Shown here: in pieces, positions 7,463-35,912 of the stretch
How positions within the stretch are numbered: the first letter of the stretch is position 1
How the letters are laid out: every line of letters begins with the position of its first letter
Virus record (IMG/VR): IMGVR_UViG_3300025425_001694
Origin: a virus
DNA length: 64,000 nucleotides
Reading direction: 5' to 3' (one strand)
The notes under the pieces: model-generated
What the model was told of the DNA's origin: nothing
Database searches by the model: none
The model's input: only the letters and a program-made list of their open reading frames with translations
Program-made: the position numbers and the translations under genes

Positions 7463-7491
7463 TTGACATTGTAATAGAATCAGTATATAAA
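7463..7491 (+). promoter_or_regulatory. Early promoter cassette with GANTC in spacer
   Basis: TTGACAttgtaataGAATCagtaTATAAA. Confidence 0.7.
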
Positions 7492-7520
7492 TTATTAACA
7501 GTGAAAAAAAGGTTCGAGCA

Positions 7521-8009
7521 ATGAAAAAGACACTAATTAGCATGGCAATCGTATTTACATCAGCCGTATCAGCGGCAGCAGATTGCAATAAAGAAGATCA
7601 GATCCACGCGCTAGCAATGAACATGTATCACGAGGCGCGTGGGGAAGGATCCGAAGCAATGCAGCTAGTCGGAGAAGTAACTCTAAATAGAACTAAAAGT
7701 AAACATTTTCCAAATAATATTTGTAAGGTTGTTTACCAAGCAAGGTTTGATTCTAAAGGAAATCCTCGGCGACATAAATGCCAATTTTCATGGTATTGCG
7801 ATGGTCTTTCAGATAAACCTTATAACGCAAAATCGTGGAAACAAGCTGAGGCCATCGCAACCGGCCTCGTGAATAAAACTATTTCTTTAATTGGAATTCA
7901 AGCTACTCACTACCACACAAAAAGTGTAAACCCGTATTGGGCAAAGAAATATACTAAGCTCGGCATGCACGGTACTCATGTATTTTATCATATGGGAAAT
8001 AAGCTGTGA
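7521..8009 (+). CDS. Cell wall hydrolase, SleB/Hydrolase_2 family
   Basis: Signal peptide; LAMNMYHEARGE, VTLNR, CQFSW, ATHYH, HVFY. Confidence 0.9.
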   Translation: MKKTLISMAIVFTSAVSAAADCNKEDQIHALAMNMYHEARGEGSEAMQLVGEVTLNRTKSKHFPNNICKVVYQARFDSKGNPRRHKCQFSWYCDGLSDKPYNAKSWKQAEAIATGLVNKTISLIGIQATHYHTKSVNPYWAKKYTKLGMHGTHVFYHMGNKL

Positions 8010-8191
8010 TAAGATGGTATGATTGGGTGCTAGCATTTGTAGTAGCAGATTTGTTTATAGCGAATATTGCCATGTTATTCAAATCCACGAACATTCTTGT
8101 AACTGCAATAGCATTCTTTTCGTGTTATACTCTGTTACATTTGTGGAATAAATATTATTGTAAATTTAGGTTAAAGTTGGAAAATAATTAA
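8006..8191 (+). CDS. Small membrane protein
   Basis: Two hydrophobic segments; GTGA overlap with upstream gene. Confidence 0.6.
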   Translation: MIRWYDWVLAFVVADLFIANIAMLFKSTNILVTAIAFFSCYTLLHLWNKYYCKFRLKLENN

Positions 8192-8210
8192 AGTAGGAGT
8201 TATATTTAAA

Positions 8211-8435
8211 ATGTTACACACTATTGAATCTCTCATAGAACGCATTAATGTAATGAAAGACAAAGCAATTCAATTGCATCGCATACGAAATCAATATAGT
8301 GAATTAAGCGGAAAAGAATACGACAAAAAACAAGCACAGTTGTTGTTAGATGATATACAAGCTATGGCGCTATCAATTGCAAAAGATCGTCAAGGTAATG
8401 AAATACTAACTGATATGGATGAATGGAAAAAATGA
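8211..8435 (+). CDS. Hypothetical protein
   Basis: RBS AGGAG, in operon. Confidence 0.7.
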   Translation: MLHTIESLIERINVMKDKAIQLHRIRNQYSELSGKEYDKKQAQLLLDDIQAMALSIAKDRQGNEILTDMDEWKK

Positions 8436-8770
8436 AATATGTAATTGATATTGACGGTACTATTTGTACTGAAGTAATACTTCCTGGAACTGGCGGAAAG
8501 AAAGACTACGCTAAACATATTCCAATGGTGGATCGTATTGCAAAAGTAAATGCACTGTATGATGCAGGACATACTATTAAATATATGACAGCACGTGGGT
8601 GCGTAAGTAAAATTGATTATTATGATCTAACTAAAGAACAACTAATAAACTGGGGTGCAAAGCATCACGAACTAAGTGTAGGCGAAAAAGAAAACTACGA
8701 TATTTGGATTGACGATAAAGCTTTTTGGAGTGAAAACTTCTTCCGTAGAACAGGCGAAAGCTATGAATAA
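8432..8770 (+). CDS. HAD-superfamily phosphatase (capless)
   Basis: DIDGT, MTARG, IDDK motifs. Confidence 0.8.
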   Translation: MKYVIDIDGTICTEVILPGTGGKKDYAKHIPMVDRIAKVNALYDAGHTIKYMTARGCVSKIDYYDLTKEQLINWGAKHHELSVGEKENYDIWIDDKAFWSENFFRRTGESYE

Positions 8771-8921
8771 AAAAACCTGTGATGCATTTTTTTGTATTAA
8801 CCAAACTCCAAAGAAATATCGTTACTGTCATGATTGCGCTAAACGCAAAGGATTAGCCGGTGGCACTAATTGGTTTGGCTGGGTTGTATTCTTTATAATT
8901 ATAATAGTACTTTTCGGATGA
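8763..8921 (+). CDS. Small Cys4 protein with C-terminal TM
   Basis: CxxxxC...CxxC then FGWVVFFIIIIVLFG. Confidence 0.55.
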   Translation: MNKKTCDAFFCINQTPKKYRYCHDCAKRKGLAGGTNWFGWVVFFIIIIVLFG

Positions 8922-9421
8922 GTAAAATTAATAAATTTAAAAGTAAAATTGATAATTTTTTTGGGTGGGTTAAAGTCACTGAGTTGGTTGAGCTTGAAAA
9001 CATTGATGTTAGCGAAGATCCAGTGCGCCCAGAACTTGATGTAGAATGGCGTACAAGCTACGGCCGCAAAATATATGGTTTAAAATATAACGAAGAAATT
9101 GAAGGTATCATTTGCATTGCATATACCAATGATGTACCCTCAAGTGTAAAAGAATTAGACCTAATGAGTCAAAATGCTTACTTACAGAATAATAGCGATA
9201 CTGCAGTTGCTTACACTGTGTGGAGCCGTAAACGTGGCGCTGGTAAAGAAATTATCGGAAAGGTAGGCGAATTAATGAAAGATGTGCCTGAGATTAAAAC
9301 ATTAGTAACTTTAAGTCCTCTAACACCAATGGCAACACATTTTCATATTCGTAATGGTGCAAAGCAGATTGCTATTAACAGCACTACACAAAATTTTAAG
9401 TATGATTTAACAAAAGGATAA
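8918..9421 (+). CDS. GNAT-fold protein resembling a malonyl-CoA decarboxylase catalytic core
   Basis: IAYTNDVPSSVKEL, TAVAYTVWS, GAGKEII, PEIKTLVTLSP. Confidence 0.45.
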   Translation: MSKINKFKSKIDNFFGWVKVTELVELENIDVSEDPVRPELDVEWRTSYGRKIYGLKYNEEIEGIICIAYTNDVPSSVKELDLMSQNAYLQNNSDTAVAYTVWSRKRGAGKEIIGKVGELMKDVPEIKTLVTLSPLTPMATHFHIRNGAKQIAINSTTQNFKYDLTKG

Positions 9422-9424
9422 CAC

Positions 9425-9604
9425 ATGATTGACAAATATTTTTTAAGTATAACGATAGTGTTAATATTAATAGGCTGTGTCTTACTAGGAACAATATTAA
9501 TTAATATTGGTGATAATATTGATAATATTAATCTAAAGCTACAAGAATCTGGGCGCATGCTAGATGCAATGTCGAATAAGCTAGAGGATATGCCAGATGG
9601 GTAG
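9425..9604 (+). CDS. Small membrane-anchored protein (59 aa, not in ORF track)
   Basis: RBS AAGGA; MIDKYFLSITIVLILIGCVLLG...; fills the operon gap. Confidence 0.6.
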   Translation: MIDKYFLSITIVLILIGCVLLGTILINIGDNIDNINLKLQESGRMLDAMSNKLEDMPDG

Positions 9605-10418
9605 ATTTATAGCTGCGATGGATCACAGCGGTGGTTCAACCGGTGCCGTGTTAAAACGATACGGGCAAGAATATACTGAAGAAGATAAAATGGAAAAAGT
9701 TCATGCTATGCGATTGCGCATGGTGAACTCGCCAGACTTTAACGATGAAAACATCTGGGGAGCAATCCTTTATCAAGACACGGTCACGCGTGGAATGGTT
9801 AACATCTTGGATGAAATAGGTATTGAAACATTCCTAAAAATTGATAGTGGCTGTCTTAGTAATGGTATGATGAGACAATTTCCAGTAAAGCAAATGCTAG
9901 AGTTTGCTACATCTGCCGATGAAAATAGTGCAAGCATTGGTCCTAAAATTTATGGGACGAAGATGCGCAGTATCATACACAATCCATTTATGATTGATCC
10001 TGTGCTCAAACAACAGTTTACACTTGCCCGTACTATTAGCGAATACGGACTCGTTCCAATTATCGAACCTGAAGTTCCTATTAACCATCCCGATAAAGAA
10101 GCAATTGAAGATACATTAATGTGTCTCTTGGAAGTTTATCTACACAGCAAAGACTTTCCTGTTATTCTTAAACTAACACCGCCCGAAGTACCTAACTTAT
10201 ACCACAACTTAACAGTTAAACATAACGTAGAACGTGTAGTATTTTTGAGTGGTGGATATAGTACAAACGAAGCATGCAATAGACTTGGCCTCAATGAAAA
10301 CGTAAGCGCCAGTTTTAGTAGAGCGTTATCGCAAGACTTGATTTATGACATGGGAGATACCCAGTTTAATACTATCATGTCTAGAAATATTAAATTAATA
10401 ACCGATGCATGCGGATAA
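9597..10418 (+). CDS. Fructose-bisphosphate aldolase class I (bacterial type)
   Basis: FIAAMDHSGGST, GTKMRS, PIIEPEV, Schiff-base LKLT, LSGGYS, SFSRAL. Confidence 0.9.
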   Translation: MGRFIAAMDHSGGSTGAVLKRYGQEYTEEDKMEKVHAMRLRMVNSPDFNDENIWGAILYQDTVTRGMVNILDEIGIETFLKIDSGCLSNGMMRQFPVKQMLEFATSADENSASIGPKIYGTKMRSIIHNPFMIDPVLKQQFTLARTISEYGLVPIIEPEVPINHPDKEAIEDTLMCLLEVYLHSKDFPVILKLTPPEVPNLYHNLTVKHNVERVVFLSGGYSTNEACNRLGLNENVSASFSRALSQDLIYDMGDTQFNTIMSRNIKLITDACG

Positions 10419-10473
10419 AAATAAAATGAATCAATTAGAACACGCATTTTTTAACCATAAAAAGGACAACAAC

Positions 10474-10893
10474 ATGACCAAAATTAAAAAAGCTTTTTGG
10501 CTGATACTTGGATTTCTTAGTCTCGGCATGGCCTACATAGGAGTCATTGTTCCTGGAATTCCGTTTTCAATCTTCTTAGTATTCGCGGCATACTGCTTTG
10601 CTAAAAGTTCTAAAAAAATGCACGATTGGATTTACAACCACAAATACTTTGGACCATTCCTAACGAATTGGACACAAAAGAGTGTATTCCCTACTAAGGG
10701 TAAATATGCAATGATTTTAGTTATGAGCAGTTCACTTGCTTTTTTGTATTTCAGTACAGGAAATATCAAGGCAACACTATGGAGTGGAAGCTTCATGGCA
10801 CTAGTTGCAATTTGGGCTTGGAGATATCCAGGCTCAGTTAATGAATGGGAAACTCGGCAAGACGCAGGGAAAAAAATTGGCTGGTTAAAATGA
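10474..10893 (+). CDS. YbaN/DUF454 family inner-membrane protein
   Basis: GVIVPGIPFSIFLVFAAYCFAKSS...HKYFGPFLTNW; RBS AAGGA. Confidence 0.85.
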   Translation: MTKIKKAFWLILGFLSLGMAYIGVIVPGIPFSIFLVFAAYCFAKSSKKMHDWIYNHKYFGPFLTNWTQKSVFPTKGKYAMILVMSSSLAFLYFSTGNIKATLWSGSFMALVAIWAWRYPGSVNEWETRQDAGKKIGWLK

Positions 10894-10911
10894 TTTAATT
10901 TCATTTTTTAG

Positions 10912-10940
10912 TTGACATTCCTGTTAGAATCAGTTATATT
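10912..10940 (+). promoter_or_regulatory. Early promoter cassette with GANTC in spacer
   Basis: TTGACAttcctgttaGAATCagtTATATT. Confidence 0.8.
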
Positions 10941-10974
10941 GTATATATAAGGTAACAAAAAAGGAATCACTACA

Positions 10975-11346
10975 ATGACAAAATTCGCAGTATATCAAAT
11001 TCAACTTACTTCAGCTCAATGCGACGCGGTTAACAACAACGAGATTGTTCCAGCATTCGAAGCTCGTAACAAAATGATGATGGACTTCAGCGGAGATCGT
11101 ATTGGTGGTTTGGCTTCTAACGCTTTCGAAGCTGGTCTATATACTCACGTAGCTAACATCACAGCTAAAGATTACAATGATTGTTTCGAAGTTGGTAACA
11201 TCGGTCCCGAGTCAAGCATCGAACGTTTGTCTCGTATGTCTTCACTTTCAGTTGGCGATGTTATCGTCCACGAAGATGGTACAGTAGCAGTTATTGCTCC
11301 AGTTGGTTTTGTAGCCTTTTCACATAATATAAAGGTAGCAGCATAA
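10975..11346 (+). CDS. Early protein with YodL-like motif
   Basis: FAVYQI N-terminus and SLSVGDVI...GF motif; strong promoter and RBS. Confidence 0.55.
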   Translation: MTKFAVYQIQLTSAQCDAVNNNEIVPAFEARNKMMMDFSGDRIGGLASNAFEAGLYTHVANITAKDYNDCFEVGNIGPESSIERLSRMSSLSVGDVIVHEDGTVAVIAPVGFVAFSHNIKVAA

Positions 11347-11426
11347 TGGGAGCTTTTGTTGGATGTTTAGTTTTTATCGTATTCTTAATTATTGCTACTG
11401 TAATTTACGAGAAATTTTATGATTAA
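11346..11426 (+). CDS. Putative 26-aa single-TM peptide
   Basis: TAATG coupling to upstream gene; MGAFVGCLVFIVFLIIATVIYEKFYD. Confidence 0.4.
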   Translation: MGAFVGCLVFIVFLIIATVIYEKFYD

Positions 11427-11925
11427 CTAATCCTGGCCATCTTCGAATAGAAATGGCGATTTTTGCTTCATATGGCAAGTAACTTACCTTATCGTTTTGA
11501 TTACCTCCTAAAATGATATAATATTCTGTTCCATTACTCGTGTAAGAACTTATATAAAAACCTACATGCCCCTTCCAATTAGAACCACCCCGAGGAAATA
11601 CTATTATATCACCATATTCTGGAGACTTTACTTCGTCTCCCCATTCTAGAAAGCTACGTGCCATCAAAGGATGATCGTGAAATTTGCCAGATCCTGGGAT
11701 GTTTACAGAATCAAGAATAGAATTAACAAACGCTGCACACCATTCAGTACGTACAGGATCTACTTCCATAAATGATTTTAACGCGGCCCTGTGATTGCTC
11801 TCGTCCATGCCAACGTATGCATCTGCGCTATTAATTAACATGACAGCTCTAGTTTCTTTTTCAATGTTTTCTAAATTAGCACAAGAAATTAAAAAAGTTG
11901 AGATAAATAAAATTAACAATTTCAT
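11395..11925 (-). CDS. TIGR02594-family NlpC/P60/CHAP-like cell-wall hydrolase, predicted lipoprotein
   Basis: WCAAFVN, ARSFLEWG, GDIIVF, GHVGF, LGGNQ; lipobox LISC. Confidence 0.85.
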   Translation of the reverse strand: MKLLILFISTFLISCANLENIEKETRAVMLINSADAYVGMDESNHRAALKSFMEVDPVRTEWCAAFVNSILDSVNIPGSGKFHDHPLMARSFLEWGDEVKSPEYGDIIVFPRGGSNWKGHVGFYISSYTSNGTEYYIILGGNQNDKVSYLPYEAKIAISIRRWPGLVNHKISRKLQ

Positions 11926-11944
11926 ATATTAAAAAGGTACCTTT

Positions 11945-12166
11945 ATGTATAATGCCATGATTCTTATGTGTCTTTACGGCGAAGCTGTTGACATTAACAA
12001 CTGCACTGTCATATATAATCAATTTATATACAAAACAGAAATTGAATGCATAGATTCTATTGCAGGGTTTTTAAATGATGAAATGTTTTCTATAGTATAT
12101 AAAGACTATAAACTAGAAAAAATTGAGTGTTACGAATGGTTCAATAGTGCTGAAAGTAAAACATAA
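11945..12166 (+). CDS. Hypothetical protein
   Basis: ORF with RBS AAAGGT; four Cys. Confidence 0.6.
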   Translation: MYNAMILMCLYGEAVDINNCTVIYNQFIYKTEIECIDSIAGFLNDEMFSIVYKDYKLEKIECYEWFNSAESKT

Positions 12167-12188
12167 TATTACTTTTTCTATTTATCTA

Positions 12189-12217
12189 TTTACAAACAAC
12201 ACAATGTGTAATATAAT
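12189..12217 (+). promoter_or_regulatory. Sigma70-type promoter, likely leaderless transcript
   Basis: TTTACA-N17-TATAAT ending 7 nt before the ATG at 12224. Confidence 0.55.
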
Positions 12218-12223
12218 AAACGT

Positions 12224-12535
12224 ATGTTAGAAAATTTTATAAAAAAAGACGATACCGATTCTGCAAAATGGGGTTCTCCTATTGAAGTAGAGATTCGCAA
12301 TCGAATTAAATTGTCAGTTGCTGCATACGCATACGAATATGAAAACGATTCGATAATGTCTGACGCTGAATATGATAAAAAATCGTTAGAAATAAAACCA
12401 AAGTTAAAGACAGGCTACTCCAGGATAGACGCGTTTTTTAAAAATAACTTCGATGCAGACACTGGTGTATGGATAAGAAAACATCCAGATCTGCTAAGAA
12501 TTAAAAATATATATAATGATTATTATAAGAGGTAA
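12224..12535 (+). CDS. Stand-alone NAD-ligase subdomain Ia-like protein
   Basis: AYAYEYENDSIMSDAEYD resembles LigA YY...ISDAEYD. Confidence 0.6.
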   Translation: MLENFIKKDDTDSAKWGSPIEVEIRNRIKLSVAAYAYEYENDSIMSDAEYDKKSLEIKPKLKTGYSRIDAFFKNNFDADTGVWIRKHPDLLRIKNIYNDYYKR

Positions 12536-12537
12536 AT

Positions 12538-13638
12538 ATGTGGTCATCGCAACAAGAAAAAGCACTTAAAGCTGTTGATAAATGGTTTTTTACAGAGTCA
12601 AAAAAGAAACAGATTTTTCGTATTTTTGGTTACGCAGGTACTGGAAAAACCACCCTTGCCACACACTTTGCACAAAACATCGATGGGTTAGTTATCTTTG
12701 CAGCATTCACTGGAAAGGCTGCTCTTGTAATGAAAAAAAGAGGCTGTGAAGGTGCTAGAACTATTCACAGCCTAATTTATATTGCAGGGCAAAACAAAAA
12801 GACTGGCGAAATTACTTGGAGAATGAATAAAGATAGTTCTCTTAAAGACGCGTCTCTTCTTATTATTGACGAATGTTCTATGGTAGATAAAGATTTAGCA
12901 GAAGATCTTCTATCGTTTGGTATACCTATTCTAGTTCTTGGAGATCCAGCCCAGCTTCCACCAGTTTCAGGCGCTGGATACTTTACTGACGCAAAGCCAG
13001 ATATCATGTTAACTGAAATACATCGTCAGGCTAAAGATAATCCTATTGTCTATCTTGCGTCTAAAATCCGCGAAGGTGTATATCCTGAACATGGGACGTA
13101 TGGCGAATCACGAATAGTTTCAAAGATCGCATCAACCGACGCACTAAATTCTAGTCAAATTTTGGTAGGTCGAAACGCAACTCGTGATAATATGAATATA
13201 AAAATGCGCAAGCTTTTAAAAATGAACGGCGAATATCCAATTCAAAAAGAAAAGCTTATATGCCTTAGTAATGACAAAGACTTAGGAATATTTAACGGCG
13301 GCATATTTAGCGTTGATAGAGTAATTGATACAAGACAAAAAAGTAATTTTTTACATATGAGTTTGTATCCAGAAGATGATGATGAAGGTATGCCGGTATT
13401 AGTAAAAGTTCACAAGAGCCAGTTCAGTGGAGAAGTATCAGCTCCAAACTGGAAGTTGTTAAAAGGAAGTCAACAATTTGATTTTGGCTACGCAATTACG
13501 TGTCATAAATCACAAGGATCACAATGGGATAACGTATTAATATACGATGAGTCTTGGTGCTTCCGTGACGATTGGCAACGTTGGCTGTATACTGCAATTA
13601 CCCGCGCGTCTGAAAAGGTAACGTTAGTTAAAAATTAA
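12538..13638 (+). CDS. dda: Dda/RecD-like SF1B DNA helicase
   Basis: GYAGTGKTT, IIDECSM, GDPAQLPPV, EIHRQ, YAITCHKSQGS, YTAITRA. Confidence 0.92.
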   Translation: MWSSQQEKALKAVDKWFFTESKKKQIFRIFGYAGTGKTTLATHFAQNIDGLVIFAAFTGKAALVMKKRGCEGARTIHSLIYIAGQNKKTGEITWRMNKDSSLKDASLLIIDECSMVDKDLAEDLLSFGIPILVLGDPAQLPPVSGAGYFTDAKPDIMLTEIHRQAKDNPIVYLASKIREGVYPEHGTYGESRIVSKIASTDALNSSQILVGRNATRDNMNIKMRKLLKMNGEYPIQKEKLICLSNDKDLGIFNGGIFSVDRVIDTRQKSNFLHMSLYPEDDDEGMPVLVKVHKSQFSGEVSAPNWKLLKGSQQFDFGYAITCHKSQGSQWDNVLIYDESWCFRDDWQRWLYTAITRASEKVTLVKN

Positions 13639-13662
13639 CAAATCTTATGATGTATTTTTTAG

Positions 13663-13691
13663 TTGACAAATTTTAAAAAATGTGTTATTAT
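13663..13691 (+). promoter_or_regulatory. Sigma70-type promoter
   Basis: TTGACA-N17-TATTAT. Confidence 0.65.
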
Positions 13692-13719
13692 TATATAGAA
13701 CGTAAGGAGAATAACTACA

Positions 13720-14166
13720 ATGGCCATGCACAAAACGAAAATTAATCATTCTCCAATCTTAGATACAGAACGAGTGTGTGAGCTATATTCTAAAAAGGAT
13801 GGTGTTCCTGTAAAATATGTCTGCACTAGTGCTGCAAATCATGGCACAGTTGCGATGGACATTTTTTATCGTCCTACACCGCATCCTGAGTTTGGCAATC
13901 ATTACTTTGGACTTTATAAAGCTACTGGATACGGTGCTGCTTTGGAGCCGCATGTCATGATCACTAACGCTGATAAGATTGAAGGTCTTGAGTTTGGTAT
14001 GATTGAAGGACCGGATGGTTGGGAATACAGCCAGCATCGACATGACTATCGTACTGTAGGTGATTGTGCTATTGATGGTGGCCGAGCATATGTTAAACGA
14101 GTTGGTGACGTGAGTGGGCCTTGTAAATATATGACAGTAAAAGACGGCGAATTTGTATTAGATTAA
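13720..14166 (+). CDS. Phage hypothetical protein
   Basis: RBS AAGGAG; SQHRHDY...IDGGRAY motif. Confidence 0.75.
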   Translation: MAMHKTKINHSPILDTERVCELYSKKDGVPVKYVCTSAANHGTVAMDIFYRPTPHPEFGNHYFGLYKATGYGAALEPHVMITNADKIEGLEFGMIEGPDGWEYSQHRHDYRTVGDCAIDGGRAYVKRVGDVSGPCKYMTVKDGEFVLD

Positions 14167-14220
14167 AAATGATTGGCATAGAGCATGAGTAAAAATGATT
14201 GGCATAGAGCATGAGTAAAA
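14164..14220 (+). repeat. Perfect 26-bp tandem duplication (2.2 copies)
   Basis: taaaaatgattggcatagagcatgag x2 plus taaaa. Confidence 0.95.
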
Positions 14221-14339
14221 TTCATTGGTTTGATAGAATTGAAAATCCAGCTAACAGAATGGTTGGGTACGAACACTATCCAGGATCGCACAAGGCAATT
14301 TGCTTCTGGTGGTTCTGTATTTTATGGAGTTCCAAATGA
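14211..14339 (+). CDS. Small hypothetical protein (42 aa)
   Basis: MSKIHWFDRIENP...; ATGA-coupled to next gene. Confidence 0.45.
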   Translation: MSKIHWFDRIENPANRMVGYEHYPGSHKAICFWWFCILWSSK

Positions 14340-14677
14340 CTGAATACAATCCTGACGAATACAATCCTGACAACTGGGTCATCATTAAGATTAAAGGTGA
14401 TGACCCTCACTACCGTGTCCTAGGCGGATGGAGTGGTGGTTACTTGGATGGTGACAGCTGGCGAATGAACAGTGGTATTACAAAGGTAGAAGAGGACGAA
14501 GCATTCTACTACTTCTATGGGTCTAGTGGGTCTCGATATCGTTGTTGTAAAGAGTCGTACACGTTAAGAATGAATAATGCTTATATTTGGGAACAACTAC
14601 AAGAACTTCACGGTGACACAGTTGAAATGATGTCAGAAGATACGGACTGGTTGAACACGGATTGGATTATCAAATGA
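14336..14677 (+). CDS. Phage hypothetical protein
   Basis: PDNWVIIKI...GGWSGGYLDGDSWRMNSGI; N-terminal 15-bp duplication (EYNPD x2). Confidence 0.75.
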   Translation: MTEYNPDEYNPDNWVIIKIKGDDPHYRVLGGWSGGYLDGDSWRMNSGITKVEEDEAFYYFYGSSGSRYRCCKESYTLRMNNAYIWEQLQELHGDTVEMMSEDTDWLNTDWIIK

Positions 14678-14847
14678 CTAAACTAGAAGAACTCAAGGCT
14701 GGTTATGATACTGCTCGTGATGCTTATGCTGCTATTCGTGATGCTTATGATGCTGCTTATGTTGCTTATGCTGCTGCTCGTGATGTGCGTGATGCTGCTT
14801 ATGATGCTTATAAAGCTGAACTGAAGAAGGAGAGCACAAATGACTAA
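14674..14847 (+). CDS. Ala/Asp/Tyr-repeat small protein
   Basis: Repeated RDAY/DAAY units; ATGA coupling. Confidence 0.6.
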   Translation: MTKLEELKAGYDTARDAYAAIRDAYDAAYVAYAAARDVRDAAYDAYKAELKKESTND

Positions 14848-14886
14848 ATTAGAAGGTGCTCGTAAAGCACAATTACTAGATAAAGT

Positions 14887-15066
14887 ATGACTGACCATAT
14901 GTGGAAACCAGTAGAAGAAGTTCCTGATGGTTGCTCCAAAATTGAAGTGATGTTTGAGGATAACTCCATAGGTCACTGGTGCTCATGCGATTATCATTGG
15001 GCTGTTGCTTTAAAACAAAAGTTGCCCATATATTATAGAATGGATATAGAGGATATGGACGAATGA
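14887..15066 (+). CDS. Small hypothetical protein (59 aa)
   Basis: MTDHMWKPVEEVPDG...DMDE; ATGA-coupled on both sides. Confidence 0.55.
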   Translation: MTDHMWKPVEEVPDGCSKIEVMFEDNSIGHWCSCDYHWAVALKQKLPIYYRMDIEDMDE

Positions 15067-15308
15067 GCTATAGGATTGAAGCCGCTACAAAAGAAGAATG
15101 GGCTGAAAGAGCATTATCTGGTGAGAAGAAGTTAGCTGACTTGAAAGATAGTATTAAAGAGTTGTTTAGTCTCCTTGATGCTACTGAAGAAACGGATGAA
15201 GGTCGGGCACACCGTCCAGTTCAAATAGTTTGTGTCCGTAGTGATATGTTGATGAAACTTGAGAACGTCTTGGCTACATTGAAAAGCACGTTAGGGGATA
15301 AAAAATGA
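15063..15308 (+). CDS. Hypothetical protein
   Basis: ATGA-coupled ORF. Confidence 0.7.
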   Translation: MSYRIEAATKEEWAERALSGEKKLADLKDSIKELFSLLDATEETDEGRAHRPVQIVCVRSDMLMKLENVLATLKSTLGDKK

Positions 15309-15469
15309 AGTTTATTCAACACCAAGATAATGGAACAAAGATTGAAATAGAAATCGACAATCATGCATCACTTGATGCTGTGCTTGAAGAGTTTCAAAAC
15401 TTTCTTCGTGCTTGTGGATACACAATTGAATATAATCAAGTGTTAACGATACAGGATATGGACGAATGA
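15305..15469 (+). CDS. Small hypothetical protein (54 aa)
   Basis: MKFIQH...LDAVLEEFQNFLRACGY...DMDE; ATGA-coupled on both sides. Confidence 0.65.
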   Translation: MKFIQHQDNGTKIEIEIDNHASLDAVLEEFQNFLRACGYTIEYNQVLTIQDMDE

Positions 15470-15972: not shown

Positions 15973-15976
15973 TGTA

Positions 15977-16365: not shown

Positions 16366-16366
16366 A

Positions 16367-17191: not shown

Positions 17192-17226
17192 TTGACATTT
17201 GCCTAATAATAGTTTAGATTGATTCT
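17192..17226 (+). promoter_or_regulatory. Early promoter with GANTC directly after the -10 box
   Basis: TTGACA-N17-TAGATT-GATTCT. Confidence 0.7.
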
Positions 17227-18278: not shown

Positions 18279-18713
18279 ATGTGGCATTACAAAGATAAAG
18301 AATTTACTTCAGAAATGATTGGGGATTATATCGGTTTTGTTTACATAATCACTGACGTTTCAAACGATAAGAAATATATCGGAAAAAAAATCTTTAAATC
18401 AAAAAGAAGACTTAAACCGCTTAAGGGTAAAACCCGTAGGCGGACTAAAATTGTTGAATCTGATTGGATGAAATACTATGGCTCATCAGAAACAGTTCAA
18501 TTGATATTAGAAGAAAAGGGAGTAAATAACTTTCATAGAGAAATAATTCATCTCTGTGATAAGAAAGGAGAAATGGGATACCTCGAGCTTTATGAACAAA
18601 TTACTCGTCACGCATTATTAGATGACTCATATTACAATGGTATATGCCAAGCTAAAATACATAGAAGCCATGTTAAGGGATTAAAATGGCTTATGAGTGA
18701 TACTAATAGTTGA
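18279..18713 (+). CDS. GIY-YIG endonuclease (Seg/EndoII-like)
   Basis: GFVYII...KYIGKK, YYGSS, FHREII, E...YYN. Confidence 0.85.
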   Translation: MWHYKDKEFTSEMIGDYIGFVYIITDVSNDKKYIGKKIFKSKRRLKPLKGKTRRRTKIVESDWMKYYGSSETVQLILEEKGVNNFHREIIHLCDKKGEMGYLELYEQITRHALLDDSYYNGICQAKIHRSHVKGLKWLMSDTNS

Positions 18714-18738
18714 CATTTATATTCAATTGTGTTATATT
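18710..18738 (+). promoter_or_regulatory. Sigma70-type promoter
   Basis: TTGACA-N17-TATATT; AGAATCA just downstream (18747). Confidence 0.7.
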
Positions 18739-18773
18739 AGAAATATAGAATCAAACATGCCGGAGAAAAGCAA

Positions 18774-22934: not shown

Positions 22935-22969
22935 TTGACATTTGAGTAGTACTAGTGTATATTGATTCT
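22935..22969 (+). promoter_or_regulatory. Early promoter with GANTC directly after the -10 box
   Basis: TTGACA-N17-TATATT-GATTCT. Confidence 0.75.
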
Positions 22970-23387: not shown

Positions 23388-23438
23388 TGAAATTAAATCA
23401 AATTAACTATTGACATTCTCTTTAGAATCAGATAGATT
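23388..23438 (+). promoter_or_regulatory. Early promoter cassette with GANTC in spacer
   Basis: tgaaattaaatcaaattaacta-TTGACAttctctttaGAATCagaTAGATT. Confidence 0.8.
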
Positions 23439-26809: not shown

Positions 26810-26811
26810 TA

Positions 26812-29800
26812 ATGGCATTCCCAACAAATCCAGTTAACGGCGATACATATGTTGTTGGCTCTATTGTATTTACTTATAATGCCGCTACGAATGTATGGGT
26901 TAGATCCACTAGCGCAGTATCTGCGCAAGGTACTCAAGGTACTCAAGGTTCTGGCGGTACTGACGGCGCTCAAGGATTTCAAGGTACTGATGGCCGTGGT
27001 TTTGACGGATTTCAAGGAACACAAGGAGAAACCGGCGAAGGTATCCAGGGTTTACAGGGCCGGCGAGGTATCCAAGGTATCCAAGGATTTCAAGGTGTAC
27101 AGGGCATTCAGGGAAACCAAGGAATGCAAGGAATGCAAGGCATTCAGGGACTTCAAGGAAATCAAGGTGTCCAAGGTATGCAGGGCATCCAAGGAGTACA
27201 AGGATTCCAAGGCATTCAAGGAGACCAAGGAGTACAAGGTACTGGGGGTCTAGGATCTCAAGGATTCCAAGGTACTACTGGTGAACAAGGTGTCCAAGGT
27301 AGAGCTGGATATGGTAACCAAGGACTACAAGGTATCCAAGGATATACTGGCGACCAAGGTATTCAAGGAACCCAAGGTTCTCAAGGAAACCAAGGCTTTC
27401 AAGGTATACAAGGATATCTAGGTATACAAGGCGACCAGGGCGTTCAAGGTGTACAAGGTATTGCAGTTCAAGGTACTACTGGTGCTGGGTTTCAAGGTAC
27501 TGTTGGGCAACAGGGCCTCCAAGGCGTACAAGGTATGCAAGGATTCCAAGGTATTCAAGGTACTCAAGGTGTACAAGGTCTTATGGGAGAGCAAGGCCTC
27601 CAAGGAGATCAGGGACTTCAAGGCGCGTTTGGCCCCGCTTTAAACATTATTGGTGCAGTAAGCGATGTTAACGCAAATCCGCCAAACGACCCAAATACAT
27701 TATTAAACGCAGGATTTCCGTCAGCAGGAGTTGGTGAGACTGTTATAGATGAAGCTTCAAACGATTTGTGGGCATATACTGGCGGTAGCGTTTGGATAAA
27801 TGTTGGACCAATAAGAGGCGTTCAAGGTTTTCAAGGGATACAAGGGGCGGCTATCCAAGGCATACAAGGTATGCAAGGTACACAAGCGGCGCAAGGTTCG
27901 CAAGGTGTCCAAGGAAATCTCGGAACACAAGGTACGCAGGGTACACAAGGCATCCAAGGTATGCAGGGCATGCAGGGTATGCAAGGGTTCCAAGGAATTC
28001 AAGGAGAGCAAGGTGTACAAGGTGCTATTGGTATTGGTACACAGGGTATTCAAGGTCGCCAAGGTATTCAAGGTTTTGACGGTATTCAAGGTATCCAAGG
28101 CGAGCAAGGTATTCAGGGCCTTCAAGGTGGGCAAGGTATGCAAGGCTTCCAAGGTATGCAAGGCATACAAGGAACGCAGGGTATACAAGGCGGTGGCGGC
28201 CAGCAAGGATTACAAGGAAGCCAAGGATTACAAGGCTTCCAAGGTATTCAAGGTAAAACTGGAGATCCATTTAGAATACTTGGATCTATTGAAGACGTTA
28301 ATGTTAATTTCCCAGCACGTACTCCTGAAGAAATAATAAGAGAAGCCTTTGGGCCTACGTTAGATGGTCAGCCGCCGACAGAAAGGCCAGCAATTGCTAG
28401 CCCAGATTTGTCTGACGGCATAATCGATGAAGAACTAAATGAATTTTGGCTGTGGAACGGTACTGAATGGATTAACACTGGTAATATTGTCGGGCCGCAC
28501 GGTATTCAAGGTATTCAAGGTCGCCAAGGTATTCAAGGTATTCAAGGTCGCCAAGGTATTCAAGGTGTACAAGGTATTCAAGGTGTACAAGGTATCCAGG
28601 GTCCGGTTGGACAGGGTCTTCAAGGTAGTCAGGCTTCACAAGGTATCATAGGAAATCGTGGTTTCCAAGGATTTCAAGGTATTCAAGGTCGCCAAGGTTC
28701 TCAAGGTACTCAAGGCATGCAGGGTATCCAAGGTGTACAAGGTGTACAAGGTAACACAGGTAACCCGTTTAGAATACTTGGAACTATAGCAGACGTAAAT
28801 CAGGCTCCTACATTTGACCCACAAGTAATATTGGAAACAGCCTTCCCAGATGCTGTACCAGGTGATGCGGTTATAGATGAATTGGAAAACGACCTGTGGA
28901 CGTTTACTCCTGACGATGGTGGAGAATGGATAAACGTAGGAAATATCGTTGGTCCTCAGGGTATTCAAGGTATTCAAGGTATCCAAGGCATGCAAGGTAT
29001 GCAAGGTATTCAAGGCGAACAAGGCACGCAAGGCAGCCAAGGTGTTCAAGGCTCGTACGGTCGGCAAGGTATTCAAGGTACTGGTAATGCTGGTTTCCAA
29101 GGTATTACTGGTGACCAAGGTGTACAAGGTATTCAGGGTTTACGTGGCCCTGGGCAAGGTGTGCAAGGTATTCAGGGCGAACAAGGTATTCAAGGCATAC
29201 AGGGAACGCTAGGTATTCAAGGTCGCCAAGGTATTCAAGGTCGTCAAGGATTACAAGGTATTCAGGGTCGCCAAGGTATTCAAGGTATGCAAGGCGAGCA
29301 AGGTATTCAGGGTGTGCAGGGTATGCAGGGTACTCAAGGTCGCCAGGGTATTCAGGGTCGCCAAGGTATTCAAGGTGTACAAGGTATCCAGGGTATTCAA
29401 GGACTACAGGGTATTCAGGGCATTCAGGGACTTCAAGGAAATCAAGGTGTCCAAGGTATGCAGGGCATCCAAGGAGTACAAGGATTCCAAGGCATTCAGG
29501 GTCGCCTAGGCGAGCAAGGTACTCAAGGTAAGACCGGGGCTGGTACTCAAGGTGCCCAAGGTCGCCAAGGTATACGAGGTGATACTGGCTTACAGGGTAT
29601 TTATGGAGTTCAAGGTTCTCAAGGTACTCAGGGTTCTCAAGGGAATCAGGGATTTCAGGGATTTCAAGGATTTCAAGGATTTCAAGGATTTCAGGGTTTC
29701 CAAGGATTGGTTGGCCATGGCCTTCAAGGACAGGCAGGGTCGACGCAGGGTACCCAGGGCTCTATAGGACCGGGCGGTGGGACAACATTACCGATAGGTC

Positions 29801-31686
29801 AAGAAGGTGAAGTACTCTATAATACTCAGGATGATACAAATAACGCAGCGTTTGATGATCTTGTAAATATAGAACCTATTATTGTAACGAGTGAAAGCGA
29901 AGCTGCAGCCTATTTTACCGAACCCGGCCCATCGGCACCGACGCCACAGGAGATCTTTAACAATTGGTATAGGTTTTCACACAATTCAGGAACAAATTAT
30001 CCAGCAAACGCGGCTGAAACTGCTTCGTCGCAATGGCAGTTTGATGCCGGAACACAAGAAATCGTTGGGGTAACCAACACGGGCACTGCTGTTGGCTTTG
30101 TTTCGGATCTTGAGTATTCATACTATACCTTATCATACACTTTAAGAAGTGGCCAGTACGACAACGATACGATTGGTGTTGTTCTTGCGTATATAACAGA
30201 AGGAACTTTTGGGCAGGCAGGTTATAGAGAACACACACTAACAGCATTTAGAACTGGCGGCGGTACTCAAGGAGCGCGTACATGGGGTGTTTCATATAAT
30301 ATTCTGCAAAGCGATGAGCAGATTATTGCCGACGGATCTCCTGCGGTGCCAACGACCGGTGTTTGGCATTCACTTGGATCTACGATCGTTGACGTAGATA
30401 GGCAAGGCGATATAATAACTGTAAAAACTTCTCCATTTGGTAGTGCATTATTGAGCCAAGCTTCAACTCTTACCATTGATCTAACTAGCAATCCAGTTCT
30501 CGAAAAGTTTAGAGGTCCAAAAGCTTACGGTTACATGGCTCATAGTCAAGGGGATGCGAGATTTAAAGGTGATTTTAGCGGTGTTTCATCCACAGACAAT
30601 GTTGTTTATGATGTTGTATCTGGTAAAGTTTACGGCTCACAAGTAACCCTGCCGTATTATAAAGAGTTAGTAGGAGCTGCGTCGTTTAATGACATTACAG
30701 AACCAGGCCGTTTCTATAACAACCCAGATAACAAGATTACTACCTGGAGATCTTCCTTTGATGAGAATAATTATCTAATAGGGGGCAGTGGAAGTGGAGG
30801 TACACAGGGTACACAAGGAACTACCGGGGCAGGCAGCATTGATTGTGTAGATTGCTACTATGATGAACCAACAGATACAACTAATAGTGTGGCGTTTCAC
30901 TCAAAACAATCCATGTATTTGTTTATTGATGATAACAATAATGTGGGTGAAGATTCGAATTACTTTGGCTTCTATAATGACTTAGATCCTTATACTGACA
31001 CGGTGAATAGGGATAATACAATCTTTAGGATAGATCAAGACGGGTCTGTTAGAACAACGAATGCGATATACGCAACAACGAGCGGTATTAAGTTTCCTGT
31101 TGATGCGTATGGGGGGTCGGGTGATACCGCAATGATTGATTTAAGAACAGGTGGCGGAGAAGCTACTCAACTTACTCTTCAAGTGACAAACGACGCGGAT
31201 GACGAAATACATTTTAGAGCTCCAACGGATAATGGTGTAAAAGTTAATGGATACACTGTATGGCACGAGGGAAATCATGACTGTAGTGGCGGCGGCGGCA
31301 CTGGCCTTGCTTCAAGAGCCAATTTAACAACAACGACATCTTCATTAGCAAATGATGTAAGTGAAAACGTTGACTTAACTGGCTATAAAGGATATGTGGT
31401 CTACACAATCACAACTGACCGGGCAGCTTGGGTTAGATTATATATCAATGCGGCGAGCAGAACGGCCGATGCAAGTAGAAACGAGCTTACAGACCCAGAT
31501 CCAGATGCAGGCGTAATCCTAGAAGTTATAACAAATGGCGCTGAAACCGTTGTCATTTCACCGGGTGTATTTGGATATAATGGAGAAGCTCCAGCAACAA
31601 CAACTATACCAATGAGAGTAACAAATAAATCAGGATCAACTAGCACAGTGCAGGTAGCAGTTACTGCGCTTCAATTAGAGGCATAA
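26812..31686 (+). CDS. Large collagen-like (Gly-X-Gln) fibre protein with repeated knob domains and globular C-terminal domains
   Basis: [11 protein letters not shown] start; long GxQ triplet runs broken by three homologous inserts; C-terminal AAWVRLY...[12 protein letters not shown] domain. Confidence 0.85.
27139..29498 (+). repeat. Identical 80-bp segments 2280 bp apart within the collagen gene
   Basis: 27139-27218 equals 29419-29498. Confidence 0.9.
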
Positions 31687-31689
31687 CAA

Positions 31690-33402
31690 ATGTTAAGAGA
31701 ATGGATCGTTACTCTTTATAATCGTGAAGATCTGGACGATTTTTACGAAGATATGCAAACGCCAGGTGGAAATTTATATATTCCAGACAGAGCTGTTGAT
31801 GTTGCCAAGCAAAGACCTATAAGCAGAAATACTCACTACATGTTAACTGACGAAGAAGCAGAAACGATACGCCAAGACGAAAGAGTTTGGGGAGTTGAAC
31901 TCCTTGAGCTTTTAGAACTATCAACTCGGCCGGCTGGATATAAAATTGAAAATGGTTTGTTTGCTAAAGATTGGGGTGCAGGTGGGCCACCATACACTTC
32001 TGATACTGATATAAACTGGGGATTTTTAAGACAAACCGAATCTTCAAACAGATCTAACTGGGGAGATAACGGTACGTCAGTAATAACAGATGATGTAACA
32101 ATAACCGCGTCTGGGAGGAATGTTGATGTAGTTATTTTTGATGGGCACATAGATCCAAATCACCCAGAATTTGCTGCCAACTCAGATGGCTCTGGCGGAT
32201 CGAGAATTAATCAATATAACTGGTTTCAAAATAACATAGGATTTGGAACTGGCACATACACTTATACACCGTATGTTGATTCTAGTAACGCTGGAAGAAC
32301 TAGCGATAATGATCATGGTGTTCACGTGGGCGGAACCGTAGCGGGGAATACTCAAGGTTGGGCTCGAGACGCCAATATATACAATATAAGTATATATGGA
32401 ACAAATCCAAGTTTTGGTACTCTTGGTCTAGACTCTTCAACTTATTGGGATTACGTAAGAGCTTGGCATAATAATAAACCAATTAATCCAGTGACTGGAA
32501 GGAAAAATCCTACTGTTACAAATCATAGTTACGGGTCAGCAATTACATACAATACCGGTTCTTTTGGGGCGGTGACTTCAGCAACTTTTCGTGGTGTAAC
32601 GTACTCACCAGGAAGAGCACTAACCGTCGCAGAGCTGCAAGCGCGAGGTTTCTTTACAAATGACACTTCACCCGGACCGATCCCATATTATTCTACATCA
32701 AGAACTTCAGATTTCGAAGATGCAATAAACGATGGCATAATTACGATGTCGGCCGCTGGCAATGAATCATGGAAAATAGTTAATTCATCAGACCAAGATT
32801 ATAATAATTCGTTTCTTGCAGCATTTAACGGAAGTACTTTTTCATGGTGGTTACATCGTGGAAACGGTGGCGGTGCTGGCATCGCTCTTAATATAACTGT
32901 TGGCGCCGTTGGAATTAATAAAGAAGATTATAAAGGTAATTTTAGTAATTGTGGTAGCCAAGTAGATATATTTGCCGCAGGTACTGCAATACAGAGTTCC
33001 CTTCATACCGCTTCCGGTACTGCCGGATCATCTGTCTATGACGCAAGAAACAATGCTTACTACCTTGGAAAGTACCAAGGAACTAGTATGGCTACTCCTC
33101 AAGTGTGTGGCATGCTTGCATGCCTTGCTGAGCATTGGCCCAATATGACTCAGACAGAATCAATTCAGTGGCTCGTAGATTTTTGTAACGAAAATCAAAT
33201 GGGTGATACAGGCGAAGACGATCCCATGGAAGTTTTAAGTCTTCAAGGGGCGCCAAACAAGTTTGCTAGATGGGCAAATCAAAGACCGATAAATGGGGGA
33301 ACGTTTCCAACAAGAAACTTTAGGCCGCGAACGGTTGATGGAGATCCTGTTTATTATGGAAGAAGAGTTTATCCGCGACCAAGGATACGACGAAGAGGTT
33401 AA
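31690..33402 (+). CDS. Subtilisin-like S8 serine peptidase
   Basis: Triad VDVVIFDG / HGVHVGGTVAG / GTSMATP, oxyanion AAGNE. Confidence 0.92.
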   Translation: MLREWIVTLYNREDLDDFYEDMQTPGGNLYIPDRAVDVAKQRPISRNTHYMLTDEEAETIRQDERVWGVELLELLELSTRPAGYKIENGLFAKDWGAGGPPYTSDTDINWGFLRQTESSNRSNWGDNGTSVITDDVTITASGRNVDVVIFDGHIDPNHPEFAANSDGSGGSRINQYNWFQNNIGFGTGTYTYTPYVDSSNAGRTSDNDHGVHVGGTVAGNTQGWARDANIYNISIYGTNPSFGTLGLDSSTYWDYVRAWHNNKPINPVTGRKNPTVTNHSYGSAITYNTGSFGAVTSATFRGVTYSPGRALTVAELQARGFFTNDTSPGPIPYYSTSRTSDFEDAINDGIITMSAAGNESWKIVNSSDQDYNNSFLAAFNGSTFSWWLHRGNGGGAGIALNITVGAVGINKEDYKGNFSNCGSQVDIFAAGTAIQSSLHTASGTAGSSVYDARNNAYYLGKYQGTSMATPQVCGMLACLAEHWPNMTQTESIQWLVDFCNENQMGDTGEDDPMEVLSLQGAPNKFARWANQRPINGGTFPTRNFRPRTVDGDPVYYGRRVYPRPRIRRRG

Positions 33403-34143: not shown

Positions 34144-34172
34144 TTGACATTTTGTTTAGAATCAGTTATATT
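34144..34172 (+). promoter_or_regulatory. Early promoter cassette with GANTC in spacer
   Basis: TTGACAttttgtttaGAATCagtTATATT. Confidence 0.85.
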
Positions 34173-34200: not shown

Positions 34201-34539
34201 ATGACAAAGTTCAACAAAGCAGACTTCAACTTCCACGGTGGATACCTTACATACACAGGAGAGTACTATGGTCGTCCAGTATATGAAGATGGTCCTAATG
34301 TTCACCCAACTCGTGTAGGAAAAGGTAAAGATCTTTTCATCGCTCGCTTCAAGCACAAGGGTCCGATCACTAAAGCAAAATTTCTTAAAGAACTTATTAA
34401 GAACCATGCTGTTGAGGATTATGCAAATGCTTCCTTGTTTGGCATGGCTCCGGTAGCTATCCTTAAAGATAAGAACCCAGATTGGTATGAAAATATCATG
34501 ACCAATTTTAGAACTCTTAGCCGCGTTGGATTAATGTAA
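34201..34539 (+). CDS. Early hypothetical protein
   Basis: FNFHGGYLTY, FIARFK; own promoter and RBS. Confidence 0.75.
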   Translation: MTKFNKADFNFHGGYLTYTGEYYGRPVYEDGPNVHPTRVGKGKDLFIARFKHKGPITKAKFLKELIKNHAVEDYANASLFGMAPVAILKDKNPDWYENIMTNFRTLSRVGLM

Positions 34540-34752
34540 ATGAAATATTTTAAATCTAAATATATTGGTACAGAAAACCACCTGTTTAATGGATTTTCAT
34601 GGCCATACCGCAACTGCGAGGTTACAATGAGTCAAAAAGGATTTTCATGTACTTGCATGAAGAGAATGATATATAAATGCAATCATATCAAATCAGTAGA
34701 ATTAGGAATTTTAGGAGTAGGACAGACACACTATGAACTTATTCATTCTTGA
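34540..34752 (+). CDS. SWIM-type Zn-finger small protein
   Basis: FSCTC...CNHI. Confidence 0.6.
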   Translation: MKYFKSKYIGTENHLFNGFSWPYRNCEVTMSQKGFSCTCMKRMIYKCNHIKSVELGILGVGQTHYELIHS

Positions 34753-35290
34753 TAAATCCCCAATTAAATCTGCACAATTGCAATGTGATAAGCATATTCT
34801 AAAAATGATTGTTGAATCTGCGCAGATGCTTTCTACGACCCACAGGATGCTAGACGGGGAGCTAGAACGTCGTCCATCAAAATCGGGTAGGACTATAGTT
34901 AAGTATTGGAAGCTTCCTGATAGGCGCGAAAACTTCTTCTACAAGGCTGTTCATATGTACCATCCGTGTACTGTATGGACTGCTGAATCTAATAATAACT
35001 ATAACTGGCATTGGGTGCATTTTTCTGCACTTTGTGATGAATATAAATATCGTTATGGAAAGATACATGCAACCGATAAATTACTTCGTGAAGAATTACG
35101 TTCCTTACCTAAGAACATACCGATTGGTTATTTAACATCACAGCCGTTGGCTATGAAGGCGTATCCTGAATGTATGGATCCAAATAATATAGTAGAATCA
35201 TATAGAAAGTTTTATCAAACAAAACAGCATCGTTTTAAAATGGTTTGGACTAAAAGAGAAATACCAGAATGGTTTGAGTTTGCTGCTTAG
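34733..35290 (+). CDS. Pyrimidine-dimer glycosylase/DenV-related family protein
   Basis: MNLFILD...CDKHILKMIVESAQML, HPCTVW, EYKYRYGKIH. Confidence 0.75.
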   Translation: MNLFILDKSPIKSAQLQCDKHILKMIVESAQMLSTTHRMLDGELERRPSKSGRTIVKYWKLPDRRENFFYKAVHMYHPCTVWTAESNNNYNWHWVHFSALCDEYKYRYGKIHATDKLLREELRSLPKNIPIGYLTSQPLAMKAYPECMDPNNIVESYRKFYQTKQHRFKMVWTKREIPEWFEFAA

Positions 35291-35311
35291 TATTATAGTA
35301 GGAGAAGATAA

Positions 35312-35617
35312 ATTTTAATACGATATATAGTAGCTGAAGAGGAACTTGGCGTTTTTCTAGGTGCTTTTAAAAACCAAGGTGTTTTTGCAAAAACAGATAT
35401 ATTCGGTATATCAAAAGCTTTTAGCTTTAATTCTAAAGAAGATGCTAAAGAATTCATAAGTGATTACGCTGGTGATAATAACGGCAGTTGGTCAGTTATT
35501 GGAATAAAAACCAACAACAAATACGTTGATGTTATTGATCTTATAAAAAACGGTCATTCAAAATATACTCATGGAATGATAGATTCCATGCACATGTATT
35601 CTACAGAGCTACACTAA
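35312..35617 (+). CDS. 101-aa open frame with no ATG/GTG/TTG at its 5' end (ATT or ATA start?)
   Basis: ILIRYIVAEEELGVFLG...STELH; AGGAG 7 nt before ATT; fills the intergenic gap. Confidence 0.55.
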   Translation: MLIRYIVAEEELGVFLGAFKNQGVFAKTDIFGISKAFSFNSKEDAKEFISDYAGDNNGSWSVIGIKTNNKYVDVIDLIKNGHSKYTHGMIDSMHMYSTELH

Positions 35618-35644
35618 TTTTTATATTTAATTTCATTTTATCTA

Positions 35645-35673
35645 TTGACATTTCGTTTAGAATCAGTTATATT
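35645..35673 (+). promoter_or_regulatory. Early promoter cassette with GANTC in spacer
   Basis: TTGACAtttcgtttaGAATCagtTATATT; near-identical to the 34144 copy through the RBS. Confidence 0.85.
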
Positions 35674-35700
35674 GATATTAACAGATGAAAAGGAATACAC

Positions 35701-35880
35701 ATGCAATCTTATACTATAAAAGCATACGTTTGGAAGAATGGAGCTGAAGAACTGGTTGAATGGGCGTCTGGATTTGGACACCGTCAAGCGGATCAATATT
35801 TTAAAGCTCTTCGTGCTACCAAAGATTTTGCTAAAATTGAAATGACTATGATAGATAAAAATGAAATTAAATCAAATTAA
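35701..35880 (+). CDS. Small early protein (59 aa, not in ORF track)
   Basis: RBS AAGGA; MQSYTIKAYVWKNGAEELVEW... Confidence 0.7.
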   Translation: MQSYTIKAYVWKNGAEELVEWASGFGHRQADQYFKALRATKDFAKIEMTMIDKNEIKSN

Positions 35881-35912
35881 CTATTGACATTTCGTTTAGA
35901 ATCGGTTATATT
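35862..35912 (+). promoter_or_regulatory. Early promoter cassette with GANTC in spacer
   Basis: tgaaattaaatcaaattaacta-TTGACAtttcgtttaGAATCggtTATATT. Confidence 0.85.

Follow-up and report, generated by a model that had tools for sequence, protein, structure and literature searches.

To our knowledge, GcrA has so far been described only as regulating cell-cycle genes of cellular organisms. Its recognition sequence is TGATTCG, more broadly YGAKTCK (Haakonsen 2015, PMC4647560), and the sites of the direct regulon form a narrow cluster around position -20, occur also between +2 and +30, and are almost absent at -10 (PMC4647560). The DNA-binding domain of GcrA contacts all seven bases, the crystal DNA being CTGATTCG/CGAATCAG (Wu 2018, PMC5887438), and the cryo-electron microscopy scaffold derived from the Caulobacter crescentus promoter PcsM has the layout TTGACA-CCCGGGCGAATCCCTGC-TATAAT (Wu 2023, PMC9976885), with CGAATCC on the non-template strand of the spacer (PMC9976885). 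The second relevant system is the PeSL cassette of T4-type phages, which is made up of an AT-rich stretch, a sigma70 early promoter, a Shine-Dalgarno site and ATG, and is placed before ORFans (PMC4122927). Here we describe, in a 64-kb stretch of viral DNA (IMG/VR record IMGVR_UViG_3300025425_001694, hereafter the window; 37.6% GC), a multi-copy early promoter cassette in which a GANTC-containing box, AGAATCA, occupies a fixed position between the -35 and -10 hexamers, and weigh the proposal that this box is read by the GcrA of the host.

The gene set of the window is that of a T4-like myophage. Among cultured phages, there was no DNA-level match to the window and no near-identical DNA, and the 66-nt cassette used as a query yielded chance matches only. 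The major capsid protein is closest, among cultured phages, to that of the Sinorhizobium phiM12 group (67% identity), and is 60-64% identical to those of Stenotrophomonas phage DLP6, the OM43 phage Melnitz, cyanophages and pelagiphage HTVC008M. Three whole IMG/VR relatives were used for comparison, namely G001 (182.7 kb, 91% complete, aligned blocks with ~80-90% nucleotide identity to the window), G002 (201 kb, 100% complete, ~74% nucleotide identity) and G003 (221 kb, 100% complete).

A box fixed within the early promoter cassette

The sequence-only reading of the window had located nine promoters, all of which proved to be correctly placed (Table 1). In six of these, GAATC lies in the spacer, starting exactly 15 nt past the first T of TTGACA in five and 14 nt past it in the sixth; all six are part of an early promoter-leader cassette that an uncultured T4-like myophage carries in multiple copies. 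The 7-mer is AGAATCA in five of the six promoters and AGAATCG in the remaining one, and the box promoters of the window combine a TTGACA -35 hexamer, a 17-bp spacer with GAATC at positions 10-14, and a -10 hexamer TATATT or TAGATT. Two of the other three promoters have the reversed 7-mer, TGATTCT, abutting the -10 hexamer, and the third has AGAATCA near the start site, as had been claimed. One of these layouts, that at 22935, is kept in the orthologous promoters of G001, G002 and G003, and the window and G001 share a syntenic spacing of promoters.

The enrichment of GANTC at a fixed distance from TTGACA was borne out against a shuffled background: TTGACATT-N7-GAATC has 5 matches vs 0.27 expected, and none of 100 shuffles reaches 5. 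Among all 56 TTGACA words in the window, GANTC is found at offset 15 in 5, the mean at other offsets being 0.18; the respective values are 11 vs 0.61 in G001, 13 vs 0.50 in G002 and 12 vs 0.65 in G003. In each genome, ~30% of the TTGACA-N17-TAnnnT promoters carry (A/C)GAATC(A/G)G at the same spot, and the fixed-box observation is confirmed for the whole phage clade. In a set of 148 promoters, no two of them identical, the start positions of GANTC are -20 (39 promoters), -21 (3), -6 (9) and -5 (7). The 7-mer most enriched near promoters is TAGAATC/GATTCTA (55 promoters vs ~1 expected), followed by AGAATCA/TGATTCT (47 vs 1.6 expected). Over-representation of 7-mers over the whole genome was uninformative, and the window as a whole has somewhat fewer GANTC words than its base composition predicts (150 vs 220 expected, ratio 0.68).

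The spacer-box promoters are copies of a single promoter-leader cassette of ~65 nt with the order AAATTAACTA, TTGACA, TTynnnn, TAGAATCAG, T, TATATT, (G/A)nTnATATCAAATGAAAAGGAAT, ATG, in which a leader of ~25 nt with AAGGAA separates the -10 hexamer from ATG. When conservation is profiled over 39 non-identical copies of the cassette promoter, drawn from four genomes, the box TAGAATCAG scores ~8-10 on a 0-10 information scale, like the -35 and -10 hexamers, whereas the spacer bases 3-7 beside it score ~1-6, mostly 1-4, and this uneven conservation persists between genomes that are only ~74% identical. The box word recurs past the -10 hexamer, either forward (TATATT-AGAATCA) or reversed (TATATT-GATTCTA), mostly where the spacer has no box. 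A second class of promoters carries no box and has, instead, G or TG before the -10 hexamer.

Like the PeSLs (Arbiol 2010, PMC2839356; Comeau 2014, PMC4122927), the cassettes provide many near-identical, near-consensus early sigma70 promoters followed by a Shine-Dalgarno site and ATG, and stand, in the variable parts of a T4-like genome, ahead of small genes whose function is unknown. Unlike in the PeSLs, no terminator-like hairpin was found upstream of the box promoters in 7000-26900, where as few as 18 nt separate a promoter from the preceding stop codon; conservation of the spacer is sharply uneven; and a discrete word of 7-8 bases recurs in other positions and orientations, the PeSL descriptions consulted containing no such word. 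The possibility that the motif reflects nothing but the shared ancestry of a copied cassette is countered by the box matching the hexamers in conservation while the neighbouring spacer bases vary. The box combines hexamer-level conservation with recurrence outside the homologous position and non-random flank substitutions; these results point to selection rather than mere copying, and the block (T)AGAATCA(G) is kept by purifying selection within the cassette.

A third set of GANTC words is located at ribosome-binding sites, ~17 nt past the promoter start sites (for example, at 10964, 17238 and 22987), often as AAGGAATCA(GT). The respective word, GGAATCA, falls outside both the flank pattern of the box and the GcrA consensus and looks like Shine-Dalgarno context. 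Some ribosome-binding sites and the spacer box have GAATCAGTTAT in common.

Comparison with GcrA sites and the likely host

The sequence-only reading had further proposed that the box fits the sequence context preferred by GcrA, and indeed AGAATCA is the reverse complement of TGATTCT, which lies within YGAKTCK; the optimum, TGATTCG, is matched in reverse complement by a minor variant of the box, CGAATCA. The flanks follow the pattern MGAMTCR, the reverse complement of YGAKTCK, with A or C on the 5' side and A or G on the 3' side, and 116 of the 118 boxes at position -20 fit it. Over 127 distinct box instances, which are related to one another as parts of a paralogous cassette so that the counts do not represent independent events, the 5' flank is A in 104, C in 21, G in 2 and T in none, and the 3' flank is A in 111, G in 14, T in 2 and C in none. 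As in promoters dependent on GcrA and CcrM, the GANTC core is located inside or beside a sigma70-type promoter. The architecture resembles that of PcsM, with sigma70 -35 and -10 hexamers, a 17-bp spacer and one GANTC box inside it, and in the phage, as in the PcsM scaffold, it is the non-template strand that carries GAATC. Additional boxes are found downstream of the -10 hexamer, as in GcrA-activated promoters of Caulobacter. Unlike PcsM, the phage early promoters are embedded in a repeated cassette. Consensus sites of the IHF, CtrA and LexA types, compared with the box by eye, gave no fit.

Other viral contigs were scanned for the optimum box at the correct spot, in both orientations and with a scrambled control. 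The share of good -10 hexamers was similar in all three sets, with no evidence of general enrichment among the matches listed. At the loci found via CGAATCA, 6 of 159 other promoters, among the matches listed, carry the box at the same spot; with the opposite orientation and with the scrambled control, the respective figures are 0 of 154 and 0 of 109. Those families that reuse the box therefore do so in the PcsM orientation. Five IMG/VR contigs (L456, L462, L471, L474 and L544; 41-46% GC) represent a different phage family with the layout TTGACA-N8-CGAATCAGC-TATAAA and the box at the same spot; this family also has a TGATTCG word ~22 nt past the -10 hexamer.

With regard to the host, the relative G003, which has the same cassette, encodes an ATP-synthase c subunit (atpE) whose nearest named cellular relatives are from Neptunicoccus, Amylibacter and Rhodovulum (Rhodobacteraceae). 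In addition, contigs of a metagenome-assembled genome (MAG), 'Rhodobacteraceae bacterium Water_Bin34' (G006), carry at least several different T4-like capsid genes, with identities of up to 81% to the capsid gene of the window. This MAG also includes genuine bacterial contigs of equally low GC, one of which (26 kb, 36.8% GC) encodes aspartate kinase, gcrA and argD; the GcrA recognition helix, VTRNAVIGKVHRLGL, is identical to that of Caulobacter, and the MAG also encodes a 378-aa N6_N4 methylase that is CcrM-like. The co-binning of phage and Rhodobacteraceae contigs is weak evidence because it is probably driven by composition. A host from the Rhodobacteraceae is moderately probable for the window phage.

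Both sources of this host lead have features of their own. The phage atpE (G003, L224:1468-1692; L225 and L227 in G006) retains both membrane helices of the Rhodobacteraceae protein, with the loop rewritten to KVMPKKPDTG in place of GALRNPSAATGQ. The MAG (3.6 Mb, public) consists of a genuine low-GC (~37%) Rhodobacteraceae genome mixed with T4-like capsid contigs; the contigs concerned are C235, C116, C123, C160, C79, C259, C225 and C102, and several of the capsid contigs also carry copies of the phage hemA and atpE. The class I aldolase was tried as a host marker and discarded, having environmental matches only.

Since sequence, flank degeneracy, strand, approximate position and likely host group agree, GcrA is the best single explanation for the box, and we tentatively suggest that host GcrA could be its reader, a possibility that we hold open rather than expect. 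Under this scenario, GcrA already bound to domain 2 of sigma70 in a host of the Rhodobacteraceae type would dock its DNA-binding domain on the box in the -35/-10 spacer, and RNA polymerase would thereby be assisted in engaging the early promoters of the phage and in opening them, as at PcsM in Caulobacter. That m6A methylation of the incoming phage DNA by CcrM would be needed as well is a second and weaker proposition, and gating by methylation is uncertain.

Besides the relatedness of the box instances, several observations weigh against recognition by GcrA. Genome-wide, GANTC is no outlier among comparable words. The PcsM box occupies spacer positions 8-12 and is centred on -20, whereas the phage box occupies positions 10-14, 2 bp nearer to the -10 hexamer. 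GcrA sites are taken to be characteristically centred at -20 +/- 1 or at -30 +/- 2 when upstream and between +5 and +30 when downstream; the phage box, numbered from the hexamer, is centred at ~-18 (-19 in 11 copies), with other copies at -6 to -1, ~+1 and ~+8. Should transcription start 7 nt past the hexamer, the box would miss the published range of -20 +/- 1 by one base. Many phage boxes abut the -10 hexamer (-6 to -1), where the GcrA targets of Caulobacter are nearly devoid of sites. Unlike the GcrA 7-mer, the conserved phage sequence includes a T before and a G after the box, and the central base of the phage box is always A.

The cultured phages and the host evidence add to these points. 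In phiM12, a cultured T4-like phage of an alphaproteobacterium, the count of GANTC at offset 15 is 0; like the window phage, it has a repeated cassette (AAATTCCCTG, TTGAC, N18, TAnnTT, conserved leader), but GANTC is present in only 6 of its 33 spacers, in varying places. The cultured Rhodobacteraceae phages SIO1, DSS3phi2, RDJL Phi1, RcapNL, DSS3-P1 and RcTitan show no such promoter geometry. The hemA gene of the window, which had been taken to point to an alphaproteobacterial host, encodes a true 5-aminolevulinate synthase, but the protein is only 50-57% identical to those of sampled Alphaproteobacteria, which makes it a weak pointer, and the atpE lead comes from G003 rather than from the window. 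The close homologues of hemA come from phage contigs that had been assigned to MAGs of various kinds, as well as from genomes of Neisseriaceae, Francisella and Neomarinimicrobiota. The proposed alphaproteobacterial host thus stays plausible on the strength of atpE in a relative and of a low-GC MAG with GcrA and a CcrM-like methylase, whereas the hemA argument is weak. A search for gcrA and ccrM homologues yielded no PF07750 or PF01555 match in G001, G002 or G003, and D12 (PF02086) and Dam-type (PF05869) methylases likewise had no match in these genomes. Given that the relatives have no gcrA, N6_N4, D12 or Dam-type genes, the virion DNA may be unmethylated; in relatives without a methylase, any methylation would have to be derived from the host, so that the 'methylation-gated' part of the proposal is less secure than the 'GcrA box' part.

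Details of two of these phages are given here as separate observations. The phiM12 cassette (L215-L223; for example, at 36260, 37584, 136733 and 173326) reads AAATTCCCTG, TTGACn, N17, cTAaTTT, then caaatcATAGAGAGAAAcgaaagag, and its spacers often contain GGAATTTG or GGAATC. In Roseobacter phage SIO1 (L229), GANTC occurs 52 times vs 154 expected from base composition, a depletion far stronger than the 0.68 of the window, and no promoter-linked box was found in this phage.

Other explanations of the box

The box might instead be a functional spacer element of a PeSL-like cassette whose reader is not GcrA, the GANTC core being coincidental; we regard this as rather doubtful. Recognition could then be due to the host RNA polymerase, through sigma region 3 or the beta-prime zipper, or to a DNA-binding protein of phage or host origin that controls how strong the early promoters are or when they are shut off. 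Such a reader would be compatible with the 9-base length of the conserved stretch TAGAATCAG, which exceeds the GcrA 7-mer, with the 2-bp shift from the PcsM position, with the copies directly past the -10 hexamer where GcrA sites are rare, and with the absence of the feature from all cultured alphaproteobacterial phages tested. Moreover, the TG extended -10 of the other class is missing from the promoters with the box, so that the box may stand in for the TG contact. However, 35 of 39 flank variants obey the degeneracy of GcrA, including an A-to-C transversion, the orientation is the same as in PcsM, and a search for the box word returned nothing useful. We know of no RNA polymerase contact or regulator with the specificity of this box.

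Alternatively, GAATC could be a passenger without a function of its own in a cassette that is spread by duplication and kept uniform by recombination, as proposed for the PeSLs. Conservation in the ~65-nt cassette indeed flanks the box, reaching from AAATTAACTA as far as the ribosome-binding site; up to that site, the 34144 and 35645 copies are near-identical, and the PeSLs share the make-up of the cassette and its placement before ORFans (PMC4122927). The genes behind the box promoters are mostly of unknown function, which is also why their earlier designation as 'host-takeover genes' is not shown. Homogenisation should, however, keep the whole spacer, whereas bases 3-7 vary beside an invariant box in genomes that are ~74% identical; the 7-mer also appears at non-homologous positions and, reversed, past the -10 hexamer, the flank substitutions are non-random, and the upstream stem-loop was not detected. 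A mere passenger therefore seems improbable.

That the phage supplies a reader or writer of its own, a GcrA-like protein or a GANTC methylase that marks its DNA, is highly improbable. For the relatives it is largely refuted, since none of the families PF07750, PF01555, PF02086 and PF05869 is matched in the 91% complete G001 or in G002 and G003, each 100% complete. The 623-aa methyltransferase of the window is of the FkbM/class I small-molecule type. The gene for the latter adjoins glycosyltransferases.

Taken together, a selected box, the fit to the GcrA consensus, the PcsM strand and a plausible host are the parts of the GcrA interpretation that stood, whereas a phage-encoded gcrA or methylase, the argument from hemA and the takeover genes did not.

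Features of the window and significance

Coordinates of the promoters and of hemA are given in Table 1. The open reading frame (ORF) downstream of the 7463 promoter has an endolysin-like PHROG match.

Table 1. Promoters and the hemA gene of the window, with the position of the GANTC-containing word
Feature	Coordinates	Strand	Offset of GAATC from first T of TTGACA (nt)	Box word	-10 hexamer	Remarks
Early promoter, box one base further upstream	7463..7491	+	14	AGAATCA 7476-7482	TATATA/TATAAA	-35 TTGACA; upstream of ORF 7521-8009
Cassette-type early promoter	10912..10940	+	15	AGAATCA 10926-10932	TATATT	-35 TTGACA; 17-bp spacer; upstream of ORF 10975-11346
Cassette-type early promoter	23410..23438	+	15	AGAATCA 23424-23430	TAGATT	Upstream of ORF 23469-23828
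Cassette-type early promoter	34144..34172	+	15	AGAATCA 34158-34164	TATATT	Upstream of ORF 34201-34539
Cassette-type early promoter	35645..35673	+	15	AGAATCA 35659-35665	TATATT	
Cassette-type early promoter, variant box	35884..35912	+	15	AGAATCG 35898-35904		Upstream of DUF932 gene (35948-36901) and hemA
Promoter without spacer box	17192..17226	+		TGATTCT 17220-17226	TAGATT	Reverse-oriented word abuts -10
Promoter without spacer box	22935..22969	+		TGATTCT 22963-22969	TATATT	Word abuts -10
Promoter with TG-type extended -10	18710..18753	+		AGAATCA 18747-18753		Word near start site
Sigma70-type promoter of the other class, for contrast	1861..1889	+				No box; G/TG before -10; 13663 and 33409 alike
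hemA, 5-aminolevulinate synthase	37051..38250	+				TIGR01821, 551 bits vs cut-off 338.55

The plus strand of the window encodes ribonucleotide reductase, thymidylate synthase, dihydrofolate reductase, RNase H, PhoH and a Dda-like helicase, and the minus strand encodes the major head protein, portal, sheath, terminase and collagen-like fibres. Within the plus-strand block, which otherwise has early-type promoters, a 1624-aa collagen-repeat protein is directly followed by a 570-aa subtilase of family S8 (26812-33402). Conversely placed are two near-identical plus-strand promoters, 99 bp apart, inside the minus-strand late gene block (55080-55230), with the layout TTGACA-N16-TATAAT; in both, the expected start site falls on an inverted repeat, AGAAT-N5-ATTCT, and GGAG comes next. 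This pair could represent operator-controlled or antisense promoters.

No description of phage promoters of this kind was found in the literature. A widespread marine and polar clade of T4-like phages, probably of Rhodobacteraceae, may conceivably wire about one-third of its strong early promoters to host GcrA and possibly to the CcrM methylation state, a picture that we put forward with considerable reserve. If it is true, the first minutes of infection would read the epigenetic or cell-cycle machinery of the host, and phages, by using the GcrA box, would draw on host RNA polymerase in a new way and might also gauge DNA methylation or the cell-cycle state of the host. Were GcrA the reader, the box would also serve as a sequence signature by which alphaproteobacterial hosts could be predicted for uncultured phages. 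If the box has another reader, it would still be a sharply defined promoter element in a very abundant group of uncultured phages.

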